64,000 nt of DNA from Bacteroidaceae bacterium (GCA_045631905.1 JAZQVO010000038.1:1440-65439); one strand, 5' to 3'. Shown: positions 8,676 to 41,921, counted from the first letter of the stretch. The notes: generated by a model from the sequence alone, not told the origin. Numbers and translations are program-made.

Positions 8676-8717
8676 AATATACCGTATCTTCGCGTAAAAT
8701 TTGAGAAAAAAACATAT

Positions 8718-9557: not shown

Positions 9558-9561
9558 AAAA

Positions 9562-12297: not shown

Positions 12298-12457
12298 AAA
12301 TACGCTTTTTATGGTGCGACACCAAAAATAAATCGCAAAATAATAGAAACGTATTAAAATTATTTACAAAAATTTGGTTACGCCAACGCCAAGTACAAAT
12401 TCTCATAATAGAGATAAATTTAAACAGAACATAACAAGCAGATACTTTTATACAAAA

Positions 12458-12485
12458 AGAGTTGGGCGATGTGTCGCCCAACTCT
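12458..12485 (-). terminator. Hairpin terminator after groEL
   Basis: agagttgggcga / tcgcccaactct forms a 12-bp stem with a 4-nt loop. On the minus strand it is followed by ttttt. Confidence 0.75.
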
Positions 12486-12513
12486 GCTATATGATACAAT
12501 GTTTAAACTACTT

Positions 12514-14441
<1,928 letters not shown>

Positions 14442-17310: not shown

Positions 17311-17349
17311 GAAATCTGCCACCGAGGAGCTACCTTTGTGGCAGATTTC
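17311..17349 (+). terminator. Hairpin after the symporter gene
   Basis: gaaatctgccac / gtggcagatttc forms a 12-bp stem with a 15-nt loop. It has no clear T-tract and directly abuts the riboswitch. Confidence 0.45.
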
Positions 17350-17430
17350 ATTAACGGGGTGCCTTAATACACGGGCTGAGATCATACCCAAGAACCTGAT
17401 CCGGGTAATGCCGGCGGAGGGAGATAGTCG
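17350..17430 (+). promoter_or_regulatory. TPP (THI-box) riboswitch
   Basis: acggggtgcc...gggctgagatcatacccaagaacctgatccgggtaatgccggcggagggag matches the conserved TPP aptamer blocks (GGGGUGC, CUGAGA, ACCC, GAACCUGAUC.GG.UAAUGCC.GCG.AGGGA). It sits upstream of thiamine uptake genes. Confidence 0.88.
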
Positions 17431-17543
17431 AATGGCGTGCACACATTCGGCGACACAGGAAAAATCCCCATTTTCTGTTTAACCACAGAGCTTGGAGGAT
17501 TCTTTTTTTACCCTCCACGCTCTACAAATTATTGAAAAATACA

Positions 17544-19781
17544 ATGAAAAAAAGAGCATTGTTATGCTACATTCTAAGTGTAGCGATGGTTGCGTATGCA
17601 CAAGAGGACACAGCCAAGAAAGACAGCTTACAACGAGTAAGCCTGCAAGAAGTTGAAGTACTGTCGGTACGCGCAACCGAGACCACCCCCGTGGCCTACA
17701 CAAACATCAGTCGCGAAGAGCTAAAAAAACACAACACCGGTGTCGATTTTCCCAACCTCATTAACATGACACCAAGCGCAATAACCACCAGCGACGCAGG
17801 AACAGGCATCGGCTACACCTCGCTACGCATACGAGGAACCGACGGCACACGCATAAACGTAACCGCCAACGGAATACCCATAAACGACGCCGAAAGCCAT
17901 ACCGTTTTCTGGGTAAACCTTCCCGACCTTGCCTCCTCGGTAAAAGACGTACAGATACAACGCGGAGCAGGCACATCGACCAACGGAGCAGGAGCCTTCG
18001 GCGCAAGCATAAACATGCAACTCAACGAGTTCAACAGCAAGCCCTACGGCGAGATAAGCAGTTCGATAGGCTCGTTCGGCACACACAAAACCACCCTCAA
18101 CGTAGGCACAGGTATCATGAACGACCATTGGGCACTAGATGCCCGCCTCTCCGACATAGGCAGCGACGGCTACATAAAACGCGCAAAAACCTCCCTACAA
18201 TCGTACTACCTGCAAGGCAGTTATTACAACGACAACACCGCCATAAAATTCATAACCTTCTCGGGCGAAGAGGAGACCTACCACGCATGGAACTACGCCT
18301 CAAAGGAAGAGATGAGGCTCTACGGTCGCCGATACAACAGTTGCGGATACATGTACACCGACGACAACGGCAAAGCCCACTATTACGACGACCAAACCGA
18401 CAACTACAAACAACAAAACTACCAACTCCTTGCCGACCACATTTTCTCCTCTAAATGGAAAGCAAACATCGGCCTGCACTACACCAAGGGCGACGGCTAC
18501 TACCAAGAATACAAGACCGGCCGAAAACTCATAGAATACGCCCTTACACCATTTGAGCAGGACGGCAACATAGTAAAAAAGAGCGACCTCGTGCGCAAAA
18601 AAGCCATGGACAACCACTTTGGCGGAGCAATATTCTCGGTAAACTACATCGACGACCGCTTGAACGCCACCCTTGGCGGAGCCGTAAACCGTTACATAGG
18701 AGATCACTTTGGGCATGTACTCTGGGTAAAAAACTATTCAGGCAACCTCACCCCCAACCACGAATATTACCGTAACCAAGGACAAAAAAACGATGCCAAC
18801 ATCTACCTAAAAGGTGACCTCAAACTAACAAAAAGAGTGAACGCATACGGAGATATACAGTTCCGCCACATCACATACAAAATAGACGGACACAACGACA
18901 AGTGGAACGACAACGACGAAGCCCTGCAACAACTCGCCATAGACGAAACCTTCAACTTTGTAAACCCCAAAGCCGGTATCTCATGGCAGATAAACAACAA
19001 CAGCCGTCTCTTCGGCTCCGTGAGCATGGCACACAAAGAGCCAACACGCAACAACTACACCGACGGCAAGCTCCACGAACGCCCCAAAGCCGAGCAACTA
19101 CTCGACTACGAGCTGGGCTACACCTATGCAAACAACAAATTCCACATGGGAGCAAACATCTACTACATGAACTACAAAGACCAACTTGTGCTCACCGGCG
19201 AGCTCAACGAGATAGGCGAAGCACTAGCCGCCAACGTACCTCACAGCTACCGCGCAGGCATAGAGCTCATGGCAGGCATTAAACTACCCTGTGGCTTTTC
19301 ATGGGACATAAACGCCACATTCAGCCGTAACCGCATAAAGAACTTCACCGAAACACTCTACGAAGAAGAGTGGGTAGGCGGAAACCGTTGGGTGATAGAG
19401 CACGGCGACACCCCCATAGCCTTCTCGCCCGAAGTTGTAGCAAACAACACACTAAGCTACACATTCAAAGGCTTCGAAGCATCGTTGCATACACAATATG
19501 TAAGCAAGCAATACATGAGCAACGCCAAACAGAGCGACCAAACCCTCGATGCCTATCTGGTGAGCAACCTACGCATGGCCTACAACTTCGCGTGCCCCCA
19601 CACCAAAGGCATCACAGTAGGCGTTACCGTGTACAACCTCTTCGACCACGAATACGAGAACAACGGCTACGCAGGAAGCGGTTTCTACATGGACAACGAC
19701 ACCAAAGTACGCTACAACTATGCAGGATATGCGGCACAAGCAGGCATAAACGCACTTGCAAACATAACCATAAGACTATAA
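17544..19781 (+). CDS. TonB-dependent outer-membrane receptor (thiamine-associated, OMthi-like)
   Basis: Signal peptide, a plug domain (LRIRGTDGTRINVTANGIPINDAES...) and a C-terminal beta-barrel ending in a hydrophobic residue. The ATG at 17544 is preferred over the TTG at 17532. A TPP riboswitch lies upstream. Confidence 0.85.
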   Translation: MKKRALLCYILSVAMVAYAQEDTAKKDSLQRVSLQEVEVLSVRATETTPVAYTNISREELKKHNTGVDFPNLINMTPSAITTSDAGTGIGYTSLRIRGTDGTRINVTANGIPINDAESHTVFWVNLPDLASSVKDVQIQRGAGTSTNGAGAFGASINMQLNEFNSKPYGEISSSIGSFGTHKTTLNVGTGIMNDHWALDARLSDIGSDGYIKRAKTSLQSYYLQGSYYNDNTAIKFITFSGEEETYHAWNYASKEEMRLYGRRYNSCGYMYTDDNGKAHYYDDQTDNYKQQNYQLLADHIFSSKWKANIGLHYTKGDGYYQEYKTGRKLIEYALTPFEQDGNIVKKSDLVRKKAMDNHFGGAIFSVNYIDDRLNATLGGAVNRYIGDHFGHVLWVKNYSGNLTPNHEYYRNQGQKNDANIYLKGDLKLTKRVNAYGDIQFRHITYKIDGHNDKWNDNDEALQQLAIDETFNFVNPKAGISWQINNNSRLFGSVSMAHKEPTRNNYTDGKLHERPKAEQLLDYELGYTYANNKFHMGANIYYMNYKDQLVLTGELNEIGEALAANVPHSYRAGIELMAGIKLPCGFSWDINATFSRNRIKNFTETLYEEEWVGGNRWVIEHGDTPIAFSPEVVANNTLSYTFKGFEASLHTQYVSKQYMSNAKQSDQTLDAYLVSNLRMAYNFACPHTKGITVGVTVYNLFDHEYENNGYAGSGFYMDNDTKVRYNYAGYAAQAGINALANITIRL

Positions 19782-20990: not shown

Positions 20991-22621
20991 ACACCAAAAC
21001 AAGCAGGCGAAACAAATTCCACACGACGACCACTCACAGGGTGTTCAAACGCAATGAAACACGCATGTAACATAAGCCTCTGACCGGCCATGCCATACAA
21101 AGCATCTCCAACAATAGGCACATCGAGCCCTAAACGATGGGCACAATGCACACGCAACTGATGCGTGCGCCCCGTAACAGGAACAAGAGAAACCAAAGCA
21201 CACTCCCTGCCATTCCACACAGACTTGCGCAAAACCCTGTACAAAGTAACAGCCTCCTTGCCACACACAAAGTCCACCTTCTGACAAGGCCTATGCTCAT
21301 AATCGGGCATCAAAGGCAAACAAACCTCCCCTTCACCCTTTACCGGCACACCCTCCAAAAGAGCCACATACTCCTTCTCCACAAGACGCGATGCAAAAAG
21401 AGCCTGCATAGCCCTATACACCTCCATGGAACGTGCCACCACAAGAATACCCGACGTTGCCATGTCGAGCCTGTGAGCCACAAACAAATCGTTACTGTTA
21501 TACTTTGCCCGCAACCAATCCTGCACACTCACACCACCAACAATCCCCGGCACCGACAAAACCCCATGCGGTTTCTCCACCACCACGAGAGCCTCATCTT
21601 CAAAAAGAATCTTTATATCGCCCACATCGCCACCACGCTCCACAGCCGACTCCTCCACATTCAGCCCCTGCAACATAAAGGTGAGAATAGGCAAACATTT
21701 GCTCTTGCACGAAGGGTAAAAAGCACCATCGCGACGCACCTCACCCACAGGCGAAGCGCCAACCCAAAATTCAGCCATCGCAAGCGGTTGCATACCATTC
21801 AAAAAGGCATATTGCAACAACTTGGGAGCAGCACACTCCCCTGCACCGGCAGGTGGCAAGCCACCTGTATATTCCTCAAAAACCGAAAGAAGATTCTTCT
21901 CCTCGCCACGCGCATTAAGTATCTTGAAATTTGAGAAAAGCCACTCCTGCAAAGCAGCCGAACGCTCCTTGCGCTCACAGGCAAGGCCGGCAATCTTCTC
22001 CTCAAACGGGCGCACAGCGACCTTTGCTTGCTCCACCCGTTCGGCCCAGCACCTCGACACCCTTTTAAGCTCGGCCTTCTCAAACTGGCTACAACGCACC
22101 ATCGTGGCAAGTTCTTCGGGCGACAAGCCACCCTCGCCACGCTTAACAGCACGAGCCTCCTTGTTCTTCGCGTTTACAGCCCGACGAGCCTCCACAGCCC
22201 GACGAGCCTCCTCCTCGACATGTTGCATAGCAGCAACAGCCAAAGAGTACTCTTCGCACTCCTTCAATATTTTAATCTCCCCATTTATAGCACTTATAGA
22301 GGCCTCTTCTCGCTTAAAATAACCATCGGGAGCAAGAAAATCGAAAACAGGAGGAACAAACCCCTCAACCCTGTTGCTACCACAAAGCAAACCTGAGAAA
22401 CCGGCAAGATAACCAACCACACCATCACCATCGCGCACCACCAGCACGCCAAACATTTTACCCGTGGAGGCATCGGCAGCCACAGCACTCTCGGCCAAAA
22501 GAGAGGCACGCAACTCCCTCACCGCAACATCACACAACGGGTGAGAGCGGTAGTAAAAAGGGTTATTAAATGAAACAGGCTCTTCAATACCGGATATATC
22601 CTCCTTAAACCTATGAAACAT
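20987..22621 (-). CDS. RluA-family pseudouridine synthase with an N-terminal extension of about 300 aa
   Basis: The C-terminal half has the HRLDMATSGILVVARS catalytic motif. The N-terminal half (GKMFGVLVVRDGDGVVGYLAGFSG plus a charged helical segment) is not part of the minimal RluA. Confidence 0.8.
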   Translation of the reverse strand: MFHRFKEDISGIEEPVSFNNPFYYRSHPLCDVAVRELRASLLAESAVAADASTGKMFGVLVVRDGDGVVGYLAGFSGLLCGSNRVEGFVPPVFDFLAPDGYFKREEASISAINGEIKILKECEEYSLAVAAMQHVEEEARRAVEARRAVNAKNKEARAVKRGEGGLSPEELATMVRCSQFEKAELKRVSRCWAERVEQAKVAVRPFEEKIAGLACERKERSAALQEWLFSNFKILNARGEEKNLLSVFEEYTGGLPPAGAGECAAPKLLQYAFLNGMQPLAMAEFWVGASPVGEVRRDGAFYPSCKSKCLPILTFMLQGLNVEESAVERGGDVGDIKILFEDEALVVVEKPHGVLSVPGIVGGVSVQDWLRAKYNSNDLFVAHRLDMATSGILVVARSMEVYRAMQALFASRLVEKEYVALLEGVPVKGEGEVCLPLMPDYEHRPCQKVDFVCGKEAVTLYRVLRKSVWNGRECALVSLVPVTGRTHQLRVHCAHRLGLDVPIVGDALYGMAGQRLMLHACFIAFEHPVSGRRVEFVSPACFGV

Positions 22622-22627
22622 ACACTA

Positions 22628-24469
22628 TTAACGATAGCGATACATTATATCCTTGGTAGCATCGAACCCTGTCGAAAAATCATTGTTCTCAATAGTTACA
22701 TTCACCACCCTGTCGAAGAGGAAACGATGCTTGTTCCAGTGAAAAGGCACATAGTCGTTATTCTGTACAATCTTGTTATTGCGGAACACAAAGCCATCGA
22801 GCGACTTTGCATAAACGATAGGCACATCGAATGTCTCAAAAACATTATCCTCAATTACCACACCCGTGCCATCGCCACCATGAAAATATTTTGTCTGCGC
22901 CTGCAAGTTAGGAATTTCGGGGAATATCGATATAATACCATCGGTAAATTGGAACATATTAGTAAGCGCATTGATAAAACGGTTATTACGAATGAGCACA
23001 TTACGGCAAGCACCCGTCTCGAACCACCCGTTGCAGTCGCCACACAAAAGAATAGCCGTTCCCGATGTATGGTCGAAGGTGTTATTCTCAACACGCACAT
23101 TCTTGGGCGTACTGAACAAAGCCCCTCTCGCACGATTATTGGCAATCATATTGTCGCAGAAGACCACCTCTGGAGTCCATACAAGATTTTCAACACCATA
23201 ATCGCCACAAGCAATATCGGTAGCAACCACATCGCGCAAAGTAATCTTAAACTCCTTTGCCCCATCGACCGAAGGCTTGTCATACGGCTCAATCTTCTCA
23301 ATCACATTAGGCTCGCACACCTCCATAGTCGAAGAACGCACAAACTGCACTTTGTCGCCCTCGCCTCCCCAATAAAAGCCATACGCCTGCGAGTGCATAT
23401 AACGCCCCACTATAACATTATCGGCAAGACGCTGTGTCACACGCAAATAAGTCCCATGCACATTTATAGCATCGTCCATCATACCCGTGTAAACACCATT
23501 ATTCGAACGAATCAACCCCTTGCAACCCGAAAAGTGAGTAGCATCGGCCTGAGTACTGAAATATCGGCCCTCGCTCTTGCGTGGAACAACATTAAAATAT
23601 TCGAGATCAATATTATCGCTATTCTGCGCCAAAAGACCCATACCCTCGGCATAATAGACGTAAACACGAGAAAGAGTGGTATTCTTGCACTTAGAGACAA
23701 AGATACCCGGTGTGGGGCGTGCATACGAACGCATAGCAACCACGGTGCCCGGCAACAGACGAGAATCGCGCCACGGAGCACGGATAAGACCGTGCGCAAC
23801 CTCCTCGACACCATTCACACCAACCCCAATATCGCTTGTACGATAGACCAAACGACCCGTTTTTCCATCGAAAGCAATTCCGGCCGAAGGAGTCATCTCC
23901 CAATTACTGCCAGACACGACCAACCTTCCACCTGCAACCTTGTAATTTACATAAGGAGCAACACGATAGGTAATATAACCACTCTCGGTATCATTCTCAA
24001 CAACCTCAACCTGAGTAATTTGCGGTACACGCGTATCTATCACTATTGAGCTTAGCTCGCAATTATCGCAGCCAACCATAGCCACAGGCAACATACGCCC
24101 ATTCATTAAAAATTGTGTAGCACCGACATCATCGCCACCATAATATTCGGCACCTTGAAGAGTAAAATTCCTCAAACCCTCCAACACAACAGCCACACGC
24201 TTGGGATTATCCTGGTCGTGGTTCGAAACATAATATTCGCGCACATTTGCGCTATCGGGGTAAAAATCATACTCACCCGCCTCAAAAACCAAACGCGCAG
24301 GCCTTCCTTTACGTTCCGCCTTGATCGTTTCAACAGCCGTTGCAAGCTCTTTTGTCATGTCCTTGCCCGTGTTAGGCACAACACCAAAATATTTTGCCTG
24401 ATAAACCTTTTCGCCGGCACATGCTGTAAATAAAACAGCAGTAAGCACAAATAGAAATATTTTTTTCAT
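22628..24469 (-). CDS. GH110-family alpha-1,3-galactosidase-like parallel beta-helix lipoprotein
   Basis: Lipobox LFTAC. There are long collinear matches to my memory of Bacteroides GlaB: REYYVSNHDQDNPKR, YAEGMGLLAQ, QADATHFSGCKG, MMDDAINVHGTYL, NNRARGALFSTPK, SGTAILLCGDCNGWFETGACRNV, RFINALTNMFQF. Confidence 0.8.
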   Translation of the reverse strand: MKKIFLFVLTAVLFTACAGEKVYQAKYFGVVPNTGKDMTKELATAVETIKAERKGRPARLVFEAGEYDFYPDSANVREYYVSNHDQDNPKRVAVVLEGLRNFTLQGAEYYGGDDVGATQFLMNGRMLPVAMVGCDNCELSSIVIDTRVPQITQVEVVENDTESGYITYRVAPYVNYKVAGGRLVVSGSNWEMTPSAGIAFDGKTGRLVYRTSDIGVGVNGVEEVAHGLIRAPWRDSRLLPGTVVAMRSYARPTPGIFVSKCKNTTLSRVYVYYAEGMGLLAQNSDNIDLEYFNVVPRKSEGRYFSTQADATHFSGCKGLIRSNNGVYTGMMDDAINVHGTYLRVTQRLADNVIVGRYMHSQAYGFYWGGEGDKVQFVRSSTMEVCEPNVIEKIEPYDKPSVDGAKEFKITLRDVVATDIACGDYGVENLVWTPEVVFCDNMIANNRARGALFSTPKNVRVENNTFDHTSGTAILLCGDCNGWFETGACRNVLIRNNRFINALTNMFQFTDGIISIFPEIPNLQAQTKYFHGGDGTGVVIEDNVFETFDVPIVYAKSLDGFVFRNNKIVQNNDYVPFHWNKHRFLFDRVVNVTIENNDFSTGFDATKDIMYRYR

Positions 24470-25149: not shown

Positions 25150-25171
25150 AACCGTGGTCGCAACCACGGTT
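25150..25171 (+). terminator. Hairpin after the split lipoprotein gene; the last host-like feature before the AT-rich island
   Basis: aaccgtggt / accacggtt forms a 9-bp stem with a 4-nt loop, and has no strong T-tract. Confidence 0.4.
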
Positions 25172-25284: not shown

Positions 25285-26166
25285 TTACAATCCCCAGTTT
25301 TTCAAGTTATATGTGGATTCTATGTCTGCTTCAAGGTCATCATCAAGTTCTGAAAAGAAATCAATCCCTGAAATAATCTCTAGGTCATCTACGCTCATCG
25401 CGCACTTCTGCATATTCTCATTGTTATTATGGTTGTACATAACAAATGCTATAGTTTGTCCTCCTGCAAAAATAGCTTTAAAGAATGCGTCTGGTACAAC
25501 AACTTTATTATTTCCTATAGCCCCATATTCATTATTCCATACAAGAGGACCAGTTACTACAGTAACACAGCCATATCGATTAGCCCACTCTCTAACCTTC
25601 TTTTCGAGAGTATTCCATTGACCTGAGTTCAGTGACTGATTCTGAGGACAACAGTTTGTATAGTAGAAAGTCTCAATCATTGCTTGATGACTCCATTTGA
25701 AATCAGCTGCGGGAGCCATGTGACCTTTCGACCATCCTGAATTTTTATAATCATAGTCGTCAGCTTGTGGAAGGTTTGCAGATGGATCTTGACAGAAATT
25801 AAGACCTTTTCTTTAATATGGCCCGTCTGTTTCGGTGGACATGAGTTCATATTTGACCCATTTGGGAATTTTGTATTTGGGATTATATATAACCTCATAT
25901 CCAGCATACGAGATTGTAGGATATTCTTTCTCCTTTATTTTTGTTGGAGTATCAATTGACGGTGTCGCATTGTTTTCCTTTGATACGTCCTTCGTCAGCT
26001 TTCTATAGTCTGCATATGCAGATATAGATTTCTTCTCTTGATTCTCCTCTATCACTAAGGTGTGAACAGAATCCTTTGTTTCAGTATTCGTATAATTGAT
26101 ACATCCGCATACAAAAGTGAGAGAAAGAATACAAGGGATGAAGTACAATATAGATTTTTTAATCAT
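25285..26166 (-). pseudogene. DNA/RNA non-specific endonuclease (NucA/EndoG-type His-Me finger) lipoprotein, interrupted by one in-frame TAA
   Basis: ORFs 25813-26166 and 25285-25719 are in the same frame. My translation across the gap reads ...STETDGPY*RKGLNFCQDPSANLPQADDYDYKNSGWSKGHMAPAADFKWSHQ...CCPQNQSLNSGQWNTLE, which contains the GH catalytic motif and the PQ..N.G.W..LE block. The N-terminus MIKKSILYFIPCILSLTFVCGC is a lipoprotein signal. Confidence 0.75.
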
Positions 26167-26899
26167 TCATTTTGATATTACCAATTATAGGAACTATATG
26201 TATCAAGAATCGCTGATTGAATTTTTCGTAGTCGCTCTTCTTTATTTCTTGGCCAACGACATATTCAGAACTTTGTTTATAGTCCTCTTCTGTAAATCTA
26301 GGCACACCACCTTCTCCACTACCACTGATTACCAATTCACACTTATCCATATTCGAGAAATCTATAGCAGCCTCTTCTTTCCAAAATCTATGTAATGCTA
26401 GTGCTCTTTGGTAACTTAGTACATCATTATTGTAATGTTCATTTGTGTAGTATCCATCAGCAGATGCTTGTCCCTCGATTACAACAAGATATTTAATATC
26501 CTGTTTGATGGATTTGTTGTTTTGTAACGAGGTTATTGTCTTCTGAATTTCTTTTCCTGCATCAACAATCTGTTTTCTTAGTTCGTTTGCAACTATGATA
26601 TTGGTTTTGTCTTCCTCTAGTTCATAAAGACTAAACTTGCCTTTTTGATATGTTACCTGTATACGGAAGATGTGCTTAACAAATTGAGGATTGAACTCAA
26701 AGTATGTAGGGTCAATATTTTCTACAACTTTGTATATAGATTGAATCTCCTCATACTTTTTTACTATTTTTTTTAGCTCCTCTTCTTTGATTCTAAACCT
26801 ACTATAAGAAACAGCAAAGAGAACCACCATAATTGCAAATAAAGTGGTCATAATATCCACATATGTGGTCCAAAATGAATCTTTATTTCTTTGCTTCAT
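26159..26899 (-). CDS. MotB/ZorB-like protein: N-terminal TM helix with a conserved Asp plus an OmpA-like peptidoglycan-binding domain
   Basis: 246 aa. FWTTYVDIMTTLFAIMVVLF resembles the MotB plug/TM segment (the W..YADfMT pattern, Asp at residue 15). VVIEGQASADGYYTNEHYNNDVLSYQRALALHRFW resembles the OmpA/MotB C-domain (the GHTD...N..LS..RA pattern). Confidence 0.75.
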   Translation of the reverse strand: MKQRNKDSFWTTYVDIMTTLFAIMVVLFAVSYSRFRIKEEELKKIVKKYEEIQSIYKVVENIDPTYFEFNPQFVKHIFRIQVTYQKGKFSLYELEEDKTNIIVANELRKQIVDAGKEIQKTITSLQNNKSIKQDIKYLVVIEGQASADGYYTNEHYNNDVLSYQRALALHRFWKEEAAIDFSNMDKCELVISGSGEGGVPRFTEEDYKQSSEYVVGQEIKKSDYEKFNQRFLIHIVPIIGNIKMND

Positions 26900-26904
26900 A
26901 ATTC

Positions 26905-28575
26905 TTATTTCTTACTGCGAAATATTGACCAAATGCTCGGTTTTTCTGAAACATCATTTGGTTGTTTAATATTTTCAGAAGACGTAGCGATCTTTTTGTT
27001 CATTGAATCTAATGCTTGTTTTACACCGTCAAGCTGTCCCAATACTTTTGAAACTTTTTCAGAAACTTCTGGCTGTGTCTTTACATCAGCTTGTATAGAT
27101 GAAAGAAGCGCAATTAACTCTGGTATTTTTCCCAAATTAGATAAATACTTATTTTGAGCCTCAAGGTCTATTGATTTACGTATTTCAGCAATATATTCAT
27201 CACGTTTTGCCTCTACAGCAGACATACATTCCTTTACAATAACTTCGTATGCAGACTTAAAATCATTCATGGCTGATGCAAAGTCATCTCCATGATTATC
27301 AATAGCTGTACAATATTTTTCGTTCAACTGTTTGATCGCTTTTGTTTGAGCCTCATATATGACTTTTAACTCATCATCTGCAAGTTCTTGATATGATACA
27401 GCAAGATCTGTTTTCTTCTGAATAGCAGTTATCTGTTCTTGAATAAGATTCATTTGGCTATTACCAAGCAATTGAGTCTGAGCGATACTTATTCCAAGCG
27501 CATTAAGAGATTCTTCAAATGTAACAATACGATTAAGAATTGTATTAATCTTTTCGAATACTCTTTCAGGAACACTCATCTGTTCAATGAATTTGGATTG
27601 TGAATCAATAAGTTTAATAGAAGAATCTGCTATTTGTTCTTTTATGTCAGACAACTTGACAATTGAAGTTGATACTGAGTCGAATTTTTCAGATGCAGTA
27701 ATGAAACTATCCAAAGTTTTCAACGTTTCTCTCTGCTTCATTGTCTTAAGCAACTGATCTTGCATTCTTACATTTTCATTGATTAGAGACATATTGTCAC
27801 CCATAGTCTCAACAGCATCGGTTAAAAGTCTTACTTTATCGCCAAAAGAATCTCTTAATGTTTCAGTACATTCATTAAAAGCATCTTTAAAATCTCCAAT
27901 AACACCCTTGAATGCTGGTTCGAAAGTGTTTATAGTTCTATGCAATTTATTAAGTGCAGAGACCATACTAGTACCTAGCACTGGCATCAACTTGACCTGA
28001 ATAAAGTCGAAAAATTTATTTTTATCCTCTTCAACTTTTTTAAGTACATTTGCTGCAGTCGCATTTCCCCACATCATAAGGACTAAGCCTATAAGGCTCG
28101 TTACCATTGATACGATAATACCACCAATCAATGCAGATACAATTTCATCTGACACACCTGCTTTATCAACGCCAATTTTGAAACTTTGAAGGCCGATCCA
28201 AACACCAAAAAATGTACCCATCAAACCCAAATAAGTTGGAAATGATACTTTTGAAGTTGCATCCTCATACAAAGCTTCAAGCCTATTCTGAACTTTATCT
28301 TTGATAATTCCAAAATCAGTTGTACCCTCATTCTTTGCCAAGTATTCGTTAATTTCGTTGACTAACTCATTAAGTTTATTAGATGAGTTACCAATCATTA
28401 TTGAATAACCTGTCTCACCTTTTTCTACCTCCCATTTTTGAGAGTTAGGGAAAAAGTTTTTGAATTTACTAAGCTTTCGCAGTGTTGGGATAAATACCCA
28501 CAACTGCAAAATTGCAAAGAATATGATAGAAATCAACGGATTACTATCCAAGAAAAGATATATTTGTTCCATCAA
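26905..28575 (-). CDS. MotA/ExbB/TolQ-family channel protein with a C-terminal helical tail of about 370 aa (ZorA-like)
   Basis: 556 aa. TM1 spans residues 12-32. PTYLGLMGTFFGVWIGLQSF and LIGGIIVSMVTSLIGLVLMMWGN match the ExbB/MotA core (YLGLfGTvwG..., GIa.AL.tTa.GL). Residues about 186-556 are charged, helix-prone and lack TM segments. Confidence 0.75.
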   Translation of the reverse strand: MMEQIYLFLDSNPLISIIFFAILQLWVFIPTLRKLSKFKNFFPNSQKWEVEKGETGYSIMIGNSSNKLNELVNEINEYLAKNEGTTDFGIIKDKVQNRLEALYEDATSKVSFPTYLGLMGTFFGVWIGLQSFKIGVDKAGVSDEIVSALIGGIIVSMVTSLIGLVLMMWGNATAANVLKKVEEDKNKFFDFIQVKLMPVLGTSMVSALNKLHRTINTFEPAFKGVIGDFKDAFNECTETLRDSFGDKVRLLTDAVETMGDNMSLINENVRMQDQLLKTMKQRETLKTLDSFITASEKFDSVSTSIVKLSDIKEQIADSSIKLIDSQSKFIEQMSVPERVFEKINTILNRIVTFEESLNALGISIAQTQLLGNSQMNLIQEQITAIQKKTDLAVSYQELADDELKVIYEAQTKAIKQLNEKYCTAIDNHGDDFASAMNDFKSAYEVIVKECMSAVEAKRDEYIAEIRKSIDLEAQNKYLSNLGKIPELIALLSSIQADVKTQPEVSEKVSKVLGQLDGVKQALDSMNKKIATSSENIKQPNDVSEKPSIWSIFRSKK

Positions 28576-28578
28576 TGA

Positions 28579-31500
28579 TTAAGCCTTATAATTGGTTAAT
28601 TGTAACAATGCATCTGTTACAGGGATAAAGAATAATGTATCGTTATATTGTTCTTGTCCAGAATACACATCAATAATTTCTGTCTGTAACTTTGAATCCA
28701 GAACATCAGCAATGCCATCATTCACAAGTTCGAGAACTTTATCAGCTACGATTTGTCCGCTCACAGCGCCTTTTCTAATTAATAGACCGAGTACTTCTTT
28801 GTAGACATTATTCATAGCCTTAATCTGGCTGATAACATTTGTCTTGATATCAGTTTTGTATTTGCTTACAAGTTCATTCACATCTTCACATTCGTATTCT
28901 GAACCATCTCCATAATACACTACAGATATAGGCTGCTGAGCGCCTTCCTTGTGATATAATCCACCATAGCAAGTACTTTCCTTGCGTATTTCAGGAAGTA
29001 CAAGCTGAATGTCGTTAATCTCTTTTCCAAAGACTCTAGACATTACTAAGTGTGTAATCTCGGTAAGGAGAGTCTCGTTTGAAGTAATATACTGATCTAT
29101 ATAACGGCTACCATTGCCACTGAATGTTATAGTTCTAGGATAGCTTAACTTTTTAGCATTGAGCATAGAAGCCAGATAGTATACTGTTGCTGTAAAATGA
29201 TACGCGAAAGCAAAAGCAAAGTCATTTCTCAGTTTATCTGCAATCTTTGTTTCAACATTGTTGCTAATCCAAAAGTTGATGATATCCTGAGTTGTACTCT
29301 CATTGTTAGAAATCATATGAGAATTTAGACTCTTCAATGAATCAGTATCAAATCCGATTGTATCCTTATATTTATTGTAGATACCATTCTTTTTTGAGTT
29401 CTTGAATTTATCGAATGCGTTGCCCCACATAACATCACAACCAAAGTGTACAGAGTTTGCAATTTTAGGCTCTCCTTTCTGGAAATATACGAAATCAGTA
29501 GATCCTCCTCCAATATCTACGATTGCAACAGACTCAACGCTCTTGTATTCATCTTTAGCGTTGAAGTAGTAATATGGCGCCTCAGACTCAGTATAGCACT
29601 TAATCTGCTCTTTTGTCGATTCAATATTAAGGATATATTTTGCTTCTTCGGTCCAAATCTTTTCAAAGGTAGCTCTCTCGGTTTCTTTGAAGCTGAGTGG
29701 TCTAAACCAAATCACTCCTGTCTTAGAAATAATACCATTTTCCTGAAGAATGTCAGCCTTGATAATCAGCAACAACTCACGAATAAATACTCTGAGACAT
29801 TTTTCATCAGAAGACCATTTGATATTTGTGATAATTCTTTGATTAGCAGCAGGCTTGCTCTTTTCGTAGAAGAAGGCAATATTGCTGTTATCAAAGAGCG
29901 AAAGTTTAGAAGCGTCCTCCCCTGTAAAACACAATGCTGTTCTGATAGGGAATCTATACGCTTTACCGTCAATGTATGGTGGCACAAACTCAGTCTTAAA
30001 TGCAGTCTTAAATACATCAGGAGTATTATTCTCCCAACATAGAACAGGATTCTGCTGAGTGGATCCAGCCTTGTCGTGCAAGTAGCTTACTATTGGCTTA
30101 TCCATAGTAAGTTGCTGCGGCTCGTTCATTTCGCCTTTCTCCTTACGGGAGATATATGTATTTGATGTACCAAAGTCTATTGCGTATTCAAACACCTTAT
30201 CAGACTGTACCGCTATATCCCAAATGGGGAATAATGCAAATGTATAGTCTTTGCTGTCAATCGTCACAGTAGCAAGAACTGCATCAAAATTTGTATTGAA
30301 TACTTCATAAAATTTAGATCCGCAATCTATATTTAATCCCTGCTGTGAGCGGACAAATGCAGGTTTAACACCACTATCAAATGTATTATCGGTTGCTGTT
30401 TCTATAATCTGAAATTTACCTTCACAATCTCGATAGAAATCCAAACTGATATTATTCGCTGTAAATGTTCTTCTATCATTACCATCAAAAGCAGAAACAA
30501 GCACCTTGAAATAATTATTCTCCTCTTTCTTTGTTGATAAGACATTAGGGAATAGTGCTAAATCAAAGTTAACTTTTGCTGTATCAAGAGATATAATTAC
30601 ACCTTCGCCACTTTTTACAGCAGAGGTCTCAGCGCGATATGTCTTTTTAAATTCTTCACCGTTATGTTTGAATATAACTTCTACTGCCTTGTTCTTCTCT
30701 TGACAAACTGCTGTTAAATCTCCTTTTCCGATTACTTCGAATGCCTGTGATGAGAGAGGTATGAGATAATCGTAGTCTCTCTTAGAATTTTCGTTTACAA
30801 ACTCCATTGTCTGGAACTTGCTAGATGACAATCTATAGGGAACCTTGATAATAGCCTCAGAAAAATAATTCAAAGATTTGAGGTCCTTGCTCGTCATCAC
30901 ATTAACGCCGTTGACCTCAATAGCACTATTGTCGTTACTATAGATCGGACTTAATGAGGTGGCTTCCCAATTAGACTTAATTTCTGGATCCGAGTGGAAC
31001 GATTGAATATAGTCTCTAAGCTCATTGTATTTTGCATCAAGGGTGTCTCCATTGCCAAACAAGAAATTATACATATAATTTTTGAAGGCAACAGGACGTT
31101 TGTCAAAAAGCTGAATATCCTGGAAGTATTTGCCTGAGCTTTCTCTGTAAATTGGCCTGAGCGTATGATAATTCTCACCAACAAAAATCATCTTTCTTGC
31201 CGATCCACCTTTCTCGTCATCCTTGACTTCTTTCAAATCCATGTCTGGTGGAGTAATGAAACCTGTAAATGGAGAACTTGTTGCAAGAAGATATTCTTTA
31301 CCGTCTTGTTCAAGAATAATGAAAAAGAGTTTCTTTTCTCCTAAATCATCATTAAAGTAGCTCTCAATTGCAGTACCGAGAATTGGCACTGCAGTTTTAA
31401 GGGTTTTCAAATCATCGTTGTAATTCCACTCTTTAATAACAATCTTAAGACCTGTACCTTGCCATAAATTCTCATGGTAATTTTTGTTATACAGCAGTTC

Positions 31501-31773
31501 GAATACGTCAAGACAGTTAGAAACAAGACGCTCATATGCACGTCCAGCTTGTTTGGTCGGGTTATTTCTTTCTTCTAAGACTCTTCTAAATGCTTCTTTA
31601 AAAATATAGAATCTTGCAAATGGGGTCGGAAGAGCATTCAATGCTCCGCCGTTATCGGTTCTTTGTTCACCGATATTTCCTAAATCTGCAGCCGTTATAC
31701 GTCCTGGACCAGCAGTCCAATTAAACTCTGATGCCGCCCCCCTTTGAATAATATTTAAATCTACACTACTCAT
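28579..31773 (-). CDS. Large protein: unknown N-terminal region of about 520 aa plus a C-terminal Hsp70/actin-fold (ASKHA) ATPase domain
   Basis: 1064 aa. AIDFGTSNT (residues 531-539, phosphate-1), ESEAPYYY (729-736), VDIGGGSTD (752-760, phosphate-2), TFSGNGSRY (883-891, adenosine-type) and ESTCYGG (932-938) occur in the canonical Hsp70/actin order. Confidence 0.65.
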   Translation of the reverse strand: MSSVDLNIIQRGAASEFNWTAGPGRITAADLGNIGEQRTDNGGALNALPTPFARFYIFKEAFRRVLEERNNPTKQAGRAYERLVSNCLDVFELLYNKNYHENLWQGTGLKIVIKEWNYNDDLKTLKTAVPILGTAIESYFNDDLGEKKLFFIILEQDGKEYLLATSSPFTGFITPPDMDLKEVKDDEKGGSARKMIFVGENYHTLRPIYRESSGKYFQDIQLFDKRPVAFKNYMYNFLFGNGDTLDAKYNELRDYIQSFHSDPEIKSNWEATSLSPIYSNDNSAIEVNGVNVMTSKDLKSLNYFSEAIIKVPYRLSSSKFQTMEFVNENSKRDYDYLIPLSSQAFEVIGKGDLTAVCQEKNKAVEVIFKHNGEEFKKTYRAETSAVKSGEGVIISLDTAKVNFDLALFPNVLSTKKEENNYFKVLVSAFDGNDRRTFTANNISLDFYRDCEGKFQIIETATDNTFDSGVKPAFVRSQQGLNIDCGSKFYEVFNTNFDAVLATVTIDSKDYTFALFPIWDIAVQSDKVFEYAIDFGTSNTYISRKEKGEMNEPQQLTMDKPIVSYLHDKAGSTQQNPVLCWENNTPDVFKTAFKTEFVPPYIDGKAYRFPIRTALCFTGEDASKLSLFDNSNIAFFYEKSKPAANQRIITNIKWSSDEKCLRVFIRELLLIIKADILQENGIISKTGVIWFRPLSFKETERATFEKIWTEEAKYILNIESTKEQIKCYTESEAPYYYFNAKDEYKSVESVAIVDIGGGSTDFVYFQKGEPKIANSVHFGCDVMWGNAFDKFKNSKKNGIYNKYKDTIGFDTDSLKSLNSHMISNNESTTQDIINFWISNNVETKIADKLRNDFAFAFAYHFTATVYYLASMLNAKKLSYPRTITFSGNGSRYIDQYITSNETLLTEITHLVMSRVFGKEINDIQLVLPEIRKESTCYGGLYHKEGAQQPISVVYYGDGSEYECEDVNELVSKYKTDIKTNVISQIKAMNNVYKEVLGLLIRKGAVSGQIVADKVLELVNDGIADVLDSKLQTEIIDVYSGQEQYNDTLFFIPVTDALLQLTNYKA

Positions 31774-31784
31774 AGCCTTATGTC

Positions 31785-33179
31785 TTAGATGGTTTTGGTG
31801 TATTCAGTTATTCCCTCGTATGCAAAATCAAGCAAATATCTCAATGTATTATCGTGCTCGGTTTTGTCCTTCTTGTTACCAGCTTCAATCATCTTAAGAA
31901 GATAGTATGATTCATCCTTCGCTTTCAAGGTAATTCCTTTCACTATATTTGAAAGCTTTTCACCTTTGAGTATTTTATTAAGCGGTGAAAAACCTCTATT
32001 GTTTTCAGATAGTTCTACATACCAATTATGGTATTGATTTACAAAAGTTTTAAGTGCCCCAAAAGGTTGGTCTTGGTAGAAATCTTTATTCAAACCTCTC
32101 GTTTTCTTCAGTGGAAAACGTCTTTCTGTTGGTAGGATATCCAAAAGCAGATCAAAAATCATCATATTAGCAATATCTTTGACCATAGGTTTATAACCTT
32201 CGCCCAAAGAGGACATATCTAGTGCATCAACATTTTCACGTATTGCCCTAGTCATTGCTTGTGGAGTATCTGGAGTCGGTCTGCCTAAGAAATCAAAAAG
32301 TGCAGATGCTGCAACTAACTCAACAAGGTGTGCCGTATCTTTCTGTTCTTTTTCATTGTTCTTATAATTTGCTCTTAAGCTTTGTTCGCCCACATAATAA
32401 AGGAAGTCAGACTTGACGCTCTTCTCATAATAGCTAAGCGCAGCCTTTGTCTTTGTATAGAAGTTTGATGAATCAATGTCACTTCCTGAGGTCGTTGGGT
32501 CATCAAGAGAGTAGTATGGCAACACTGTTACTGCTCCCATAACAGCACTCTGTACCTGAGGATGGGCTTGGTCGTCTCTAATCTTTTTCTCAAGAAGTGG
32601 ATAACCTGATGCGCCAGTTCCACCAAAAATTGAACTAATAATAAATATCCTGTCACCCTTTTCGCAGTGTCTGCGGAATGCATCGTACCAATCGGCACCG
32701 CTTATCATTTCGTTGAGAACTACTGTACCTACATTGGGGTTACCTTTAAAGCCAACCGAAAGACTATTGTTAAGATTCTCTTGTGAATATAATGTCTGAA
32801 TCAAGAATTTATTCACGTCATTATTCGCCAGTTTGCCAACATTAAGATATTGTCCGAATGTTTTTTTCTCAGCCATGCTAGTACTTACACTATTTTGCTG
32901 ATTGTCGAGATCTTCCAATCTTATAATCTTAGTATTAAAGAAGCCTGATGGAGCAGATAATTGTTGTGCTCTGTCTGTTGTCGCGTTCTTATACACTTTG
33001 ATATAGTCTCCAATTGTTGTGGTAAGGATAGCGTTCTCTTCCAAATCAACATGGGGATCTATTATAACAGGAACAATATCATAGCCGCTAGTTCTCATGC
33101 CAGCAGCTGCCATCATCACAACAGACTTCATTACGCGAAGCCCTGTGCCACCTATACAAAAAACAAAAACTTTTGCCAT
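31785..33179 (-). CDS. FtsZ/tubulin-superfamily GTPase-like protein (divergent)
   Basis: 464 aa. VFCIGGTGLRV (T1-like, residues 6-16), GFKGNPNVG (residues 143-151, compare the FtsZ T3 GAGANPEVG) and FGGTGASG (residues 185-192, compare the tubulin signature GGGTG[ST]G). Confidence 0.7.
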   Translation of the reverse strand: MAKVFVFCIGGTGLRVMKSVVMMAAAGMRTSGYDIVPVIIDPHVDLEENAILTTTIGDYIKVYKNATTDRAQQLSAPSGFFNTKIIRLEDLDNQQNSVSTSMAEKKTFGQYLNVGKLANNDVNKFLIQTLYSQENLNNSLSVGFKGNPNVGTVVLNEMISGADWYDAFRRHCEKGDRIFIISSIFGGTGASGYPLLEKKIRDDQAHPQVQSAVMGAVTVLPYYSLDDPTTSGSDIDSSNFYTKTKAALSYYEKSVKSDFLYYVGEQSLRANYKNNEKEQKDTAHLVELVAASALFDFLGRPTPDTPQAMTRAIRENVDALDMSSLGEGYKPMVKDIANMMIFDLLLDILPTERRFPLKKTRGLNKDFYQDQPFGALKTFVNQYHNWYVELSENNRGFSPLNKILKGEKLSNIVKGITLKAKDESYYLLKMIEAGNKKDKTEHDNTLRYLLDFAYEGITEYTKTI

Positions 33180-33181
33180 AA

Positions 33182-33634
33182 CTATTTGCCTAATTTAAGG
33201 AATCTGTACGCATTAGTTGATACAGGTAAATTACAGATAATAAATGATGTTATAAAATAGATAGCAGATGCGTATAACCCATTTATTAATGATATCCTCA
33301 ATATGAAACCAACTTGCTCTTTGAGAGTTGACGAAACCATCGCATTGCCTAAAATCATTGTTAACCCTATCGTAGCGACAACTGTTATTACTAACCAGAT
33401 TACCCAATGGCGTATTCTGTATTTTCTTCCTGGAAGTTTGTTGTAGCCATAATAATAATAGCAAACAACTACAACAGCAACAGCAATGGCTGTAGCAAGA
33501 AAATACATACTAGCAGAGTCAAGGCTATTCCAAAGAGATCGAGCCATATTGTAAAGAGGCTCATTATCCTTATACCTAACCAGGTGCTCAGCCTGATTTG
33601 GCAACCCCCAATCATACAAATTAAGCATTCCCAT
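33182..33634 (-). CDS. Small integral membrane protein (about 3 TM), unknown family
   Basis: 150 aa. The hydrophobic segments are YFLATAIAVAVVVVCYYYY, WVIWLVITVVATIGLTMILG and LINGLYASAIYFITSFIIC. It is separated by 2 nt from both neighbouring genes. Confidence 0.55.
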   Translation of the reverse strand: MGMLNLYDWGLPNQAEHLVRYKDNEPLYNMARSLWNSLDSASMYFLATAIAVAVVVVCYYYYGYNKLPGRKYRIRHWVIWLVITVVATIGLTMILGNAMVSSTLKEQVGFILRISLINGLYASAIYFITSFIICNLPVSTNAYRFLKLGK

Positions 33635-33636: not shown

Positions 33637-34920
33637 TTATTGCTTTATTTTAGATATTAATATTCTATTTGGTGTTTCATCCCAGTGATTCTGAATTGCA
33701 TTGAATACACCAGATACAAATCTATCAACAGAGAATGACCCTGTGTAATCATTCTCTGCTGTTGCAGACATTATATTAGTGAAGTCAAGCGTAACAGAGT
33801 AGTCTGGATGGTTTAATGTCCATTCAATGACATCTGATTCAGTGAACATGTTGTAAATTTTAAGTTCTACTTTCGCGGTTGCTTTTCTCTTCAATTCTTT
33901 GTTGAAATGATTGTTTACGTCGATAGAAACCCTTTCTATGCTTACTGATGAGCCGTAACATGATTTTACAGCAAGACTTTCTTTGAAAGCATCTTCGTTA
34001 GTAATTAACCAGCGGAAGTTGCTTAAGTCAATATTTAATACCACTTTACAAGTATCAGAATACTGAACATCAAAGTTTGTAAATGTAGGTTGGTCAACAA
34101 ATTGAAGAGCATTGTCTGGAATACCAAACGAATAAATTGGAGCTTTGTAGTCAAATCCAATTTCAATACAATCACCGTAATCACCATAGTCTTCCAAGAG
34201 TGTAGCAATGCTGTTTCTCATGAAAGCAACATTTTTATCCTTTCCAAGAATCAAAAAATAATAAGGGGAATCTTCTGTAAGTGTACTTCCATTAGCGGCT
34301 AAAAAATCCGATTTGGCCATGATTAAGCTAACCGCCAATCCAGGATACTTGCCAATTACATTGCGAATGTCTGTTTGATATTGTGTAAGCAAAACCTTGA
34401 CATCCTTTTGTTTTTCAGGGCTATACTTCATATCTGAAATTAGAACAGCGCATTGTCCCTCATCAAACCTTAGATTCTCTAGAATAGATTTAAGCATAGT
34501 AGGAACAAGTGTTTCTTGATTGCTCACAAAAGCACCAGAATTCATTTTTGCCCTAAAATCGTTTACAGAATATGTACCTGCAACAGTACCTGCATTAGAA
34601 AGTATGCTAACATCATTGCCTCCAAAATTGGACACTATTGACCATACGTCCTTCTTAAATCGAGTTGCTTTATTGGATCTAAAGAAACCATTCATGCTAC
34701 CACTAACCTCAACATAAAATCCGAGAGCAGAAGGTTTTTCTACAGAGAAAGACTCTTTAATAGAGTCTAGACAATATCCATCGTCTGTAAAATGTGGATC
34801 AGATACTGTGTTAACTGGGTCACAAGAAGAAAGCAGCAAAATCCCAGAGAGCATTATCAAAGCAACAGATAGCTTATTCTTAACCCTGATCAAAATACTG
34901 CAGCACATACTTAAATCCAT
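33637..34920 (-). CDS. vWA-like lipoprotein (degenerate MIDAS ExSxS) with an unknown beta-rich C-terminal region
   Basis: 427 aa. Lipobox LLLSSC (Cys33). GFYVEVSGSMNGFF at residues 67-80 resembles vWA beta1-MIDAS (DxSxS, with Glu in place of Asp). AVLISDMKY resembles the beta4 Asp segment. Confidence 0.5.
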   Translation of the reverse strand: MDLSMCCSILIRVKNKLSVALIMLSGILLLSSCDPVNTVSDPHFTDDGYCLDSIKESFSVEKPSALGFYVEVSGSMNGFFRSNKATRFKKDVWSIVSNFGGNDVSILSNAGTVAGTYSVNDFRAKMNSGAFVSNQETLVPTMLKSILENLRFDEGQCAVLISDMKYSPEKQKDVKVLLTQYQTDIRNVIGKYPGLAVSLIMAKSDFLAANGSTLTEDSPYYFLILGKDKNVAFMRNSIATLLEDYGDYGDCIEIGFDYKAPIYSFGIPDNALQFVDQPTFTNFDVQYSDTCKVVLNIDLSNFRWLITNEDAFKESLAVKSCYGSSVSIERVSIDVNNHFNKELKRKATAKVELKIYNMFTESDVIEWTLNHPDYSVTLDFTNIMSATAENDYTGSFSVDRFVSGVFNAIQNHWDETPNRILISKIKQ

Positions 34921-37886: not shown

Positions 37887-37888
37887 AA

Positions 37889-39700: not shown

Positions 39701-39706
39701 TAAAAT

Positions 39707-41323: not shown

Positions 41324-41350
41324 GGTTTTTATAAATCATCAGGGTTAATA

Positions 41351-41917: not shown

Positions 41918-41921
41918 ATCG

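Follow-up and report, generated by a model that had tools for sequence, protein, structure and literature searches.

A ZorAB-like gene pair in a conserved Bacteroidales operon with tubulin-like and actin-fold partners: a candidate Zorya-related system

We analysed a 64,000-nucleotide (nt) stretch of DNA from a Bacteroidaceae bacterium (GCA_045631905.1 JAZQVO010000038.1:1440-65439), referred to below as the window, whose minus strand carries seven tightly packed genes that overlap or lie 2-11 nt apart. Genes 5 and 6 encode proteins resembling ZorA and ZorB, the motor pair of the Zorya immune systems, and share the operon with genes for a lipoprotein, a small membrane protein, two putative nucleoside triphosphatases (NTPases) and a nuclease. 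The genes and two terminator-like hairpins are listed here, with positions counted from the first letter of the window.

33637-34920, minus strand: gene 1, lipoprotein of 427 amino acids (aa) with the lipobox LLSSC
33182-33634, minus strand: gene 2, small integral membrane protein of 150 aa, family unassigned, recognised from hydrophobic segments and its conserved operon position
31785-33179, minus strand: gene 3, tubulin/FtsZ-superfamily GTPase-like protein of 464 aa, from sub-threshold Pfam matches and motifs
28579-31773, minus strand: gene 4, 1064-aa protein whose C-terminal half bears an actin/Hsp70/Ppx (ASKHA) ATPase fold signature, from motifs and a near-threshold Pfam match
26905-28575, minus strand: gene 5, ZorA-like protein of 556 aa, from profile comparison and an AlphaFold model
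26159-26899, minus strand: gene 6, ZorB-like protein of 246 aa, from PADLOC, an AlphaFold model and Foldseek
25285-26166, minus strand: gene 7, Endonuclease_NS (DNA/RNA non-specific nuclease) lipoprotein gene, from PF01223, interrupted by an in-frame TAA
35272-35303, minus strand: terminator-like hairpin with a 13-bp stem, after the upstream AAA_14/DUF4143 gene, consensus scan only
25150-25171, minus strand: terminator-like hairpin with a 9-bp stem and a T-run, ~115 nt past the nuclease stop, consensus scan only

Both open reading frames (ORFs) of the pair lie on the minus strand, with the lengths and within the span that a preliminary description of this DNA had given them, and the motifs quoted there were all found in the translations (YLGLMGTFFGVWIGL and LIGGIIVSMVTSLIGLVLMMWGN in the 556-aa protein and FWTTYVDIMTT in its partner). 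The accompanying claim that the pair closes the operon did not hold, as the nuclease ORF overlaps the ZorB-like stop by 8 nt and the sole downstream terminator-like hairpin, at 25171-25150, lies beyond the nuclease gene. The consensus terminator scan found no hairpin between the ZorB-like and nuclease genes. The hairpin at 25171-25150 is likely the 3' end of the transcription unit, and that at 35303-35272 sets the upstream AAA_14/DUF4143 gene apart from the operon. Canonical Zorya operons were said to start with zorAB, and the order zorA-zorB-zorE in E. coli Sakai bears this out; here, in contrast, the pair occupies operon positions 5-6 rather than 1-2.

The ZorB-like identity of the 246-aa protein is our firmest result, and the evidence for it is strong. 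The protein matches the PADLOC ZorB1 model at 6.8e-11 over residues 2-209 and a second ZorB1 model at 2.4e-9, while the Pfam families MotB_plug (2.4e-4) and OmpA (0.006) match below threshold. Its AlphaFold model (predicted local distance difference test score, pLDDT, 80.8; predicted template-modelling score, pTM, 0.71) contains one unbroken helix, residues 9-60, that leads into an alpha/beta domain. A Foldseek search of the whole PDB with the full-length model returned ZorB chains as the top three matches, namely 8QYD_F (E. coli ZorB, 5.9e-8), 8VVN_B and 8VVN_A (Shewanella), with E-values of 5.9e-8 to 1.7e-6 and query-normalised template-modelling scores (TM-scores) of 0.51-0.61. The chains that follow are peptidoglycan-binding domains, those of YfiB, MotS, PomB, TagL, Pal and MotB. 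ZorAB structures are available for type I from E. coli (8QYD) and Shewanella (8VVN) and for type II (8VVI), and a helix that runs into the domain without a plug or linker sets ZorB apart from MotB (Hu et al. 2024, PMC11946911).

The OmpA-like domain of the ZorB-like protein spans residues ~62-246, and its fold predicts peptidoglycan binding. Across 54 ZorB-like homologues, the residues Asp15 of the transmembrane (TM) helix (codon at 26855-26857, minus strand), N158, L161, S162, R165 and A166 are invariant. The latter five form N158-x-x-L161-S-x-x-R165-A, the OmpA-like domain motif N-x-x-L-S-x-x-R-A, and the stretch N158-A166 aligns with the part of ZorB in which Hu et al. made their mutations (PMC11946911). 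The MotB-type TM segment and OmpA-like domain announced for this protein are thus both present, and a missing peptidoglycan-binding fold, which had been named as a ground for dropping the ZorAB-like reading, was not what we found. As in Zorya, the TM helix with its Asp, a residue essential in ZorB, is joined without a linker to an OmpA-like domain of the peptidoglycan-binding type. The two disulfides of ZorB are not conserved, and there is only one invariant Cys. The ZorB-like protein scores below the curated NCBIfam cutoff (ZorB1, 18.8 bits versus 400), and a single-sequence search against PDB sequences gave only an insignificant ZorB match, which a profile improved slightly.

The ORF of the 556-aa protein opens with TTG. 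Since an ATG follows it directly and the protein has 555 aa in the closest relatives, the true start is probably at 28572, giving a protein of 555 aa. Its layout comprises TM1 (~13-33), a cytoplasmic insert (34-110), TM2 (112-139), TM3 (143-172) and then the tail. In the AlphaFold model (pLDDT 80.7, core >90), helices span residues 13-39, 112-139 and 143-200. The parts of the protein that are used in the comparisons below are as follows.

28060-28242, minus strand: TM2-TM3 channel core of the ZorA-like protein, residues 112-172, from hhalign alignments
26908-28020, minus strand: cytoplasmic helical tail of the ZorA-like protein, residues 186-556, from the AlphaFold model, periodicity and conservation

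On profile-level evidence only, the 556-aa protein appears to be ZorA-like. In hhalign comparisons of the family core (residues 1-205) with E. coli references, in which the identity of the Sakai pair as ZorA2 and ZorB2 was confirmed at 1e-302 and 2e-104, ZorA2 was matched with 95.9% probability (E 6e-9), TolQ with 72% (3e-5), ExbB with 46% (2e-4) and MotA with 1.8%. Residues T121 in TM2 and T159/S160 in TM3 align to the polar ring formed by T147/S184 of ZorA and T148/T181 of ExbB (hhalign; TolQ also). Residues G117, L118, T121, G124, G128, M157 and G163 are invariant among 74 diverse members of the family, and TM3 has the GG of ZorA2, not the P-G-x-x-E of ExbB/TolQ. Among the matches of these 74 members, ZorA models are the commonest named families, the NCBIfam counts being 32 for ZorA_2, 18 for ZorA_4, 10 for ZorA_3, 9 for ExbB2, 5 for TolQ and 0 for MotA. 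The PADLOC ZorA1 and ZorA2 models each match up to 20 of the 74, with best values of 1e-9 to 2e-10, and no more than 20 of the members match a PADLOC ZorA model at all. By way of calibration, the genuine ZorA2 of E. coli matches the ZorA1 models at 4e-13 to 8e-9 and the ZorA3 models at 1.6e-7 to 2.8e-4, and these cross-matches indicate that the family is about as far from each Zorya type as the types are from each other. A single-sequence PDB search with the ZorA-like protein gave only noise, and a profile helped slightly. A KwaA (Kiwa) match to the TM region (0.0098) was dismissed as chance.

The pair could instead be a divergent paralogue of ExbB/ExbD or TolQ/TolR, unrelated to Zorya, with the task of energising a transducer of the TonB/TolA type; we consider this very improbable. 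The three-TM topology, the insert between TM1 and TM2, the conserved Thr in TM2 and the best Foldseek matches are shared with ExbB-ExbD and TolQ-TolR. Foldseek lists these chains first for the 556-aa model and places ZorA (8VVN_D) at rank 21, at 9e-3 and with the highest identity of all (20%), and MotA last; some of the 74 members also match ExbB2 or TolQ, as counted above. The TM-scores of the monomer are low (0.2 query-normalised, ~0.4 target-normalised), probably because the tail dominates the full-length model. The preliminary description would have abandoned the ZorAB-like reading had the MotA-core protein clustered with ExbB/TolQ; the fold search puts ExbB/TolQ first and the sequence profiles put ZorA first, and the test is ill-posed because ZorA has the same three-TM topology as ExbB and TolQ. 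The partner argues against such a paralogue, being OmpA-like and showing no ExbD/TolR signal (hhalign 1.1-1.4% for ExbD and 0.1-0.4% for TolR). TM3 lacks P-G-x-x-E and has the ZorA2 GG, and in the profile comparison ZorA2 outscores TolQ by four orders of magnitude. A 370-residue tail is foreign to ExbB and TolQ, and the operon has no TonB/TolA-like gene. The ZorB-like fold found for the partner goes most of the way to refuting the paralogue reading.

A flagellar or gliding-type stator for motility (MotAB, PomAB or GldLM) would also combine a peptidoglycan-anchored type of B subunit, bearing a TM Asp and an OmpA-like domain, with a MotA-family A subunit. The weak Pfam match of the 556-aa protein to MotA_ExbB (0.005), the MotB_plug match of its partner and the MotB, MotS and PomB domains among the fold matches point this way. 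Against it, MotA has four TM helices and no tail, whereas the ZorA-like protein has three, and the 1.8% hhalign probability and the absence of a MotA family among the NCBIfam matches of the 74 members argue likewise. MotB has a plug and linker; here helix 9-60 runs straight into the domain. Motility genes are absent from the neighbourhood, and the island that holds the operon is mobile. We give the stator next to no weight, and in practice it is refuted.

The tail described for the 556-aa protein, some 370 charged residues free of TM segments, is present: residues ~186-556 are 27% charged, with 7 Pro, 11 Gly and no TM segment. DSSP assigns helices 143-200, 203-239, 244-279, 282-365, 372-468, 471-498 and 502-532 in the AlphaFold model, so that residues 143-532 are helical with short breaks only and the longest helices are 282-365 and 372-468. 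A compact globular domain is excluded by this arrangement, and the tail is modelled as helical throughout. The proximal half (186-365) is conserved and of near-constant length, with many invariant Phe, Pro and Gly residues, whereas the distal half is variable in sequence and ranges from 110 to 420 residues across the family, whose total lengths lie between 472 and 761 aa (median 556). The tail had been called shorter than that of E. coli ZorA; it is shorter relative to type I ZorA, which has 729 aa (PMC11946911), but not relative to E. coli type II ZorA (550 aa), and the window protein equals the family median. The ZorA2 tail of E. coli has a single coherent hydrophobic periodicity of 3.65-3.70 residues (z = 18.7), which fits the right-handed bundle described for ZorA, whose tail forms a pentameric coiled-coil tube. 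Unlike ZorA2, the window protein lacks a single coherent 3.67-residue periodicity and has a conserved proximal domain. Matches of the tail to SMC, JetC, LmuB and apolipoprotein-type proteins were dismissed as coiled-coil composition matches.

The operon also differs from Zorya in the partners of the pair: ZorC/D, ZorE and ZorF/G are missing, and the pair is accompanied by the tubulin-like GTPase and the actin-fold ATPase together with the lipoprotein and the small TM protein. ZorC, ZorD, ZorE, ZorF and ZorG are all absent from the operon by PADLOC, in which none of the other five proteins matches any model. The gene 3 product carries the invariant motifs CIGGTGLR (T1-like) and SIFGGTGASG (resembling the T4 signature). 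It matches PF00091 at 2.2e-4, as do all five of the family members searched (best 1.6e-4), and four of the five match PF13809 (Tubulin_2/FtsZl1; best 5.7e-4); all of these matches fall below the gathering scores. The best PDB sequence matches of the gene 3 product are CetZ (3ZID, 0.015) and FtsZ. In the gene 4 product, residues ~525-1064 show the ASKHA signature, with AIDFGTSNT and VDIGGGSTD; the MreB phosphate-1 and phosphate-2 motifs align with it, and the match to PF02541 (Ppx-GppA; 5.7e-6) scores 26.4 bits, just under the cutoff of 27. No fold was assigned to the N-terminal 520 residues. The gene 1 product has an invariant pattern, E71-x-S73-G-S75-M ... T137 ... S162-D163-M, that is MIDAS/vWA-like; the vWA fold itself was not borne out by Pfam or by PDB sequences, neither of which gave a match although a profile of 17 sequences was used.

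The window copy is without an intact nuclease. PF01223 matches the C-terminal piece of the gene 7 product at 6.8e-35, and a DNA alignment places an in-frame TAA at 25813-25815, a single-base change from the TCA (Ser) found in all relatives. The gene is intact in relatives, where it encodes 258-293 aa, including 293 aa in two 99%-identical metagenomic loci, L020 and L021. The system may be decaying in this genome, a possibility that we regard as real but doubtful. The nonsense mutation would then mark either a system that has lost its function or one that has shed a costly effector, and the pair would still be present without belonging to a working unit. The single TCA-to-TAA change at a codon that is Ser in all relatives, the intact nuclease genes of L020 and L021 and the N-terminally truncated neighbouring Mob_Pre gene speak for decay. 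The other six ORFs, however, are full length and have the same lengths as in L020, a third of the related loci are naturally without the nuclease, so that the six-gene core may work alone, and the TAA may be a sequencing error. The active-site motif of the nuclease is SKGH in the window and SRGH in a close relative (L002).

What follows the ZorB-like gene varies. Among 46 loci, the nuclease gene is adjacent in 24, follows an inserted DUF4357 (RAMA-like) gene in 7 and is absent from 15. Several of the operons that lack it end at the ZorB-like gene, and in four the DUF4357 protein is the sole downstream gene product. This protein, which replaces or precedes the nuclease, has 387-478 aa and one to three RAMA-like, restriction-associated repeats; examples, all after the ZorB-like gene, are the following.

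11816-13252 of locus L088: DUF4357 protein gene
9025-10392 of locus L090: DUF4357 protein gene
12571-13998 of locus L095: DUF4357 protein gene
12431-13594 of locus L072: DUF4357 protein gene

Of the complete operons, that of L012 is the most divergent, its ZorA-like protein being 25% identical; here two proteins, of 267 and 279 aa, replace the nuclease (12194-13833). Neither has a Pfam match, and an Hsp70-GrpE-AAA gene set lies beside their genes on the opposite strand. A small DUF6804 protein of 85-104 aa adjoins the operon in L007 (3228-3485) and in L012 (2700-3014), its gene lying downstream of the nuclease gene in one lineage and upstream of gene 1 in another.

To describe its conservation, the operon was surveyed in 80 metagenomic loci and further looked-up loci with hidden Markov models built from our own alignments, the metagenome contig scan using a 23-sequence alignment. 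All four upstream genes are kept in the same order in 47 of the 49 loci with enough upstream sequence, and the order is conserved in 24 of 24 clusters after collapsing by ZorA-like identity at 90% and in 12 of 12 at 70%. The core thus runs lipoprotein, small TM protein, tubulin-like GTPase, actin-fold protein, ZorA-like and ZorB-like, and it does so down to 25-31% ZorA-like identity, with a variant carrying one extra gene at 28%. Gene 1 is present in all 24 non-redundant loci with upstream flank. Intact orthologues span 25-99% identity. An exhaustive HMMER search for the ZorA-like family found 950 representative clusters (50% identity) at E<1e-3 and 743 at E<1e-10, and the ZorB-like profile found 4911 clusters at 90% identity. 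The named hosts are all Bacteroidales (Candidatus Cryptobacteroides, Prevotella and Parabacteroides). An exact-pattern scan of GTDB genomes returned one locus, in a Candidatus Cryptobacteroides metagenome-assembled genome, at 63% identity. Most homologues are unnamed, and one is labelled 'hypothetical protein' in NCBI nr. The family had no match in phage genomes and only three loci in IMG/VR, and a phage-borne origin was rejected on these counts. In locus L028, a single 791-aa ORF (7284-9659) covers the ZorA-like and ZorB-like proteins, by fusion or by an assembly frameshift.

A more distant pair was found on the Parabacteroides distasonis plasmid NZ_OY725823.1 (locus L019, 7827-11949), in a four-gene cluster that encodes a DarT-domain protein of 419 aa, a NADAR/DUF6939 protein of 222 aa, a ZorA-like protein of 498 aa and a ZorB-like protein of 198 aa. 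In this sister clade the motor pair is again at the 3' end and is coupled to an ADP-ribosylating toxin-antitoxin pair.

In the window, the operon lies inside a low-GC island of ~14 kb (~24.5-38 kb), with a guanine-cytosine (GC) fraction of 0.33-0.38 compared with ~0.46 in the flanks. The other genes of the island that bear on its nature are these.

35328-36566, minus strand: AAA_14 and DUF4143 ATPase directly upstream of the operon, matching the PADLOC candidate defence family PDC-S01 at 6.6e-115
36693-38998, minus strand: tyrosine integrase (Arm-DNA-bind_5, SAM_5, Phage_integrase) and adjoining Mob_Pre relaxase

The relaxase matches only positions 96-195 of the Mob_Pre profile and is N-terminally truncated on this evidence. 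The island looks like a decayed mobilisable element, and no tRNA gene lies within the window to mark an attachment site. Relatives of the operon adjoin integrase, DUF3987, DUF3853, NACHT, Fic, EMARD and PDDEXK genes.

That a tubulin-like protein can occur together with a MotA/OmpA pair has been known since 2010, when operons of the FtsZl1 type with vWA and OmpA-family genes were described and a membrane-remodelling role was proposed (Makarova and Koonin 2010, PMC2875224). In Deinococcus (DR_0540-DR_0535 and Deide_2p00760-00810), these encode in order a protein of 421-478 aa, one of ~108 aa, FtsZl1 (1070 aa), a MotA/TolQ/ExbB protein (411 aa), an OmpA-family protein (~200 aa) and variable proteins (PMC2875224). 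The window operon shares with them the order tubulin-superfamily, MotA/TolQ/ExbB-like and OmpA-family, as in DR_0538-0537-0536, and likewise a gene for ~420-480 aa and a small gene precede and variable genes follow. The D. deserti MotA-like protein Deide_2p00790 matches the ZorA-like family profile with 94% probability (1.4e-7; hhalign), and this protein and its OmpA partner match the PADLOC ZorA1 and ZorB models. The likeness does not extend to all of the partners: the gene 3 product matches D. deserti FtsZl1 with 9% only (hhalign), and the lipoprotein, the small TM protein and the ASKHA protein show no hhalign similarity to the D. deserti operon proteins. FtsZl1 is one protein of 1070 aa in Deinococcus, whereas the window has a separate 464-aa tubulin-like protein and a dissimilar 1064-aa ASKHA protein; the Tubulin_2 matches are sub-threshold, a vWA protein, which FtsZl1 operons typically encode, is unconfirmed for the window and the Deinococcus MotA-like protein is shorter, at 411 aa. 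The 2010 paper predates Zorya. In the literature that we searched, we found no recognition of the Deinococcus MotA/OmpA pair as Zorya-like and no description of the Bacteroidales seven-gene form with separate tubulin-like and ASKHA proteins and an exported nuclease.

The reading of the Deinococcus operons suggests a non-immune alternative for the window, namely an envelope or membrane-remodelling machine in which the proton-driven motor would power an extracytoplasmic process while the NTPases organise the site from the cytoplasm. We hold this machine to be unlikely but worth serious attention. It could, for example, release or activate the nuclease lipoprotein, form vesicles or degrade extracellular DNA. 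The gene products at the two ends of the operon are exported lipoproteins, the nuclease being extracytoplasmic in every homologue. The ZorA-like fold is nearest to ExbB/TolQ, which energise outer-membrane processes, the Deinococcus FtsZl1 operons with MotA/OmpA genes have been read in this way (PMC2875224) and a role in force transduction has been proposed for 5:2 motors that are coupled to vWA proteins. The extracytoplasmic location of the nuclease and of the gene 1 product, the chief difficulty for a simple Zorya-like model, is what keeps the envelope machine in play. It fits less well with the location of the operon on mobile low-GC islands beside defence genes, with a nuclease that is dispensable and can be swapped for a DUF4357/RAMA-like protein, with the sister clade that couples the same motor pair to a DarT toxin and with a partner that is ZorB-like, not ExbD/TolR-like.

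Our preferred interpretation is that the operon encodes a Zorya-type motor within a six-gene core, accompanied by variable DNA-directed accessory proteins, and that it has an anti-phage or anti-mobile-element role; we judge this slightly more probable than improbable. We infer the defence role from homology and genomic context. The pair has the features of the Zorya motor, that is, adjacent genes in the order A then B, a three-TM MotA/ExbB-family A subunit that combines a Thr/Ser ring with a long helical tail at the C-terminus, free of TM segments, the B subunit described above and a location on a mobile defence island. The system is probably related to Zorya without being a member of Zorya types I-III, because neither the curated model thresholds nor the type-specific partners are matched.

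Several observations weigh against the Zorya-type interpretation. The ZorA-like protein of the window matches no PADLOC ZorA model and scores only 15.2 bits against NCBIfam ZorA_2, compared with a cutoff of 100; unlike in Zorya, the curated ZorA and ZorB cutoffs are not reached. The ZorAB-like reading of the preliminary description stands in so far as the partner is ZorB-like in sequence and fold and ZorA is nearest by profile, but the curated ZorA models are not passed. The top 20 Foldseek matches of the 556-aa model are all ExbB/TolQ chains (E ~1e-3, target-normalised TM-score ~0.42). The periodicity of the window tail is segmented, mostly 3.40-3.55 residues (heptad-like), with 3.65 in helix 372-468 and an overall z of 6.8, and in the model only a 6-residue loop separates helix 282-365 from helix 372-468, which could pack as a hairpin rather than a parallel tube. 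The gene 1 product is a lipoprotein in every homologue, hence extracytoplasmic, and the nuclease has a lipobox or signal anchor in every homologue and is predicted to be extracytoplasmic too. These exported proteins are a poor fit to the Zorya model of cytoplasmic effectors recruited by the tail, the nuclease of this operon being exported where that of Zorya is cytoplasmic. About a third of the loci have no nuclease, and the defence-island context is qualitative.

If the Zorya-type interpretation is correct, a ZorB-like dimer would be anchored to peptidoglycan through the OmpA-like domain fused directly to its TM helix, and a ring of ZorA-like subunits would surround the ZorB-like TM helix, presumably with 5:2 stoichiometry. 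Protons passing via Asp15 of the ZorB-like protein and the ring of T121 and T159/S160 of the ZorA-like protein could turn the ring and its long helical tail. The motor may sense envelope perturbation or be released by it, and the tail would then signal to the two cytoskeletal-type NTPases, which would stand in for ZorC/D, ZorE or ZorF/G. The Endonuclease_NS lipoprotein, the RAMA-like (DUF4357) proteins or both could act as effectors.

A broader and more tentative proposal, which we think rather less probable than not as it stands, is that FtsZl1-type operons are Zorya-type immune systems, in which a ZorAB-like rotor, driven by protons and anchored to peptidoglycan, signals a breach of the envelope to the tubulin-fold GTPase and the actin-fold ATPase, and the exported nuclease or the RAMA-like proteins are interchangeable outputs. 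Were it true, polymerising cytoskeletal-type NTPases would act as immune transducers or effectors, the operons would constitute a fourth Zorya architecture, widespread (at least 743 clusters at 50% identity) and found chiefly in Bacteroidales of the gut and rumen, and FtsZl1-type tubulin homologues, uncharacterised since 2010, would gain a first testable function. It would also make the operons an abundant and presently unannotated addition to the defence repertoire of gut Bacteroidales. A variant that keeps the motor and exchanges ZorC-G for a tubulin-like GTPase and an actin-fold ATPase offers an independent test of the role of the ZorA tail; the tail of this variant is of a different build, with a distal part of ~110-420 residues. 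The exported nuclease raises the puzzle of where the target DNA is met.

Three further features of the window lie outside the operon. A run of small genes at 39041-42320 (minus strand) encodes proteins with DUF1963 and MORN-repeat domains and proteins with no match, some with acidic tracts, and resembles the immunity-protein arrays of Bacteroidales polymorphic-toxin loci. A thiamine pyrophosphate (TPP) riboswitch at 17345-17440 (plus strand; RF00059, 56.6 bits, above the gathering score) lies upstream of a 749-aa ORF (17532-19781). Long ORFs overlap on opposite strands at 12469-14151 (555/545 aa) and at 22613-24469 (478/613 aa). At the latter position the minus-strand ORF has Pfam support (beta-helix/GLAA-B domains), and the plus-strand ORF is therefore probably a shadow ORF.

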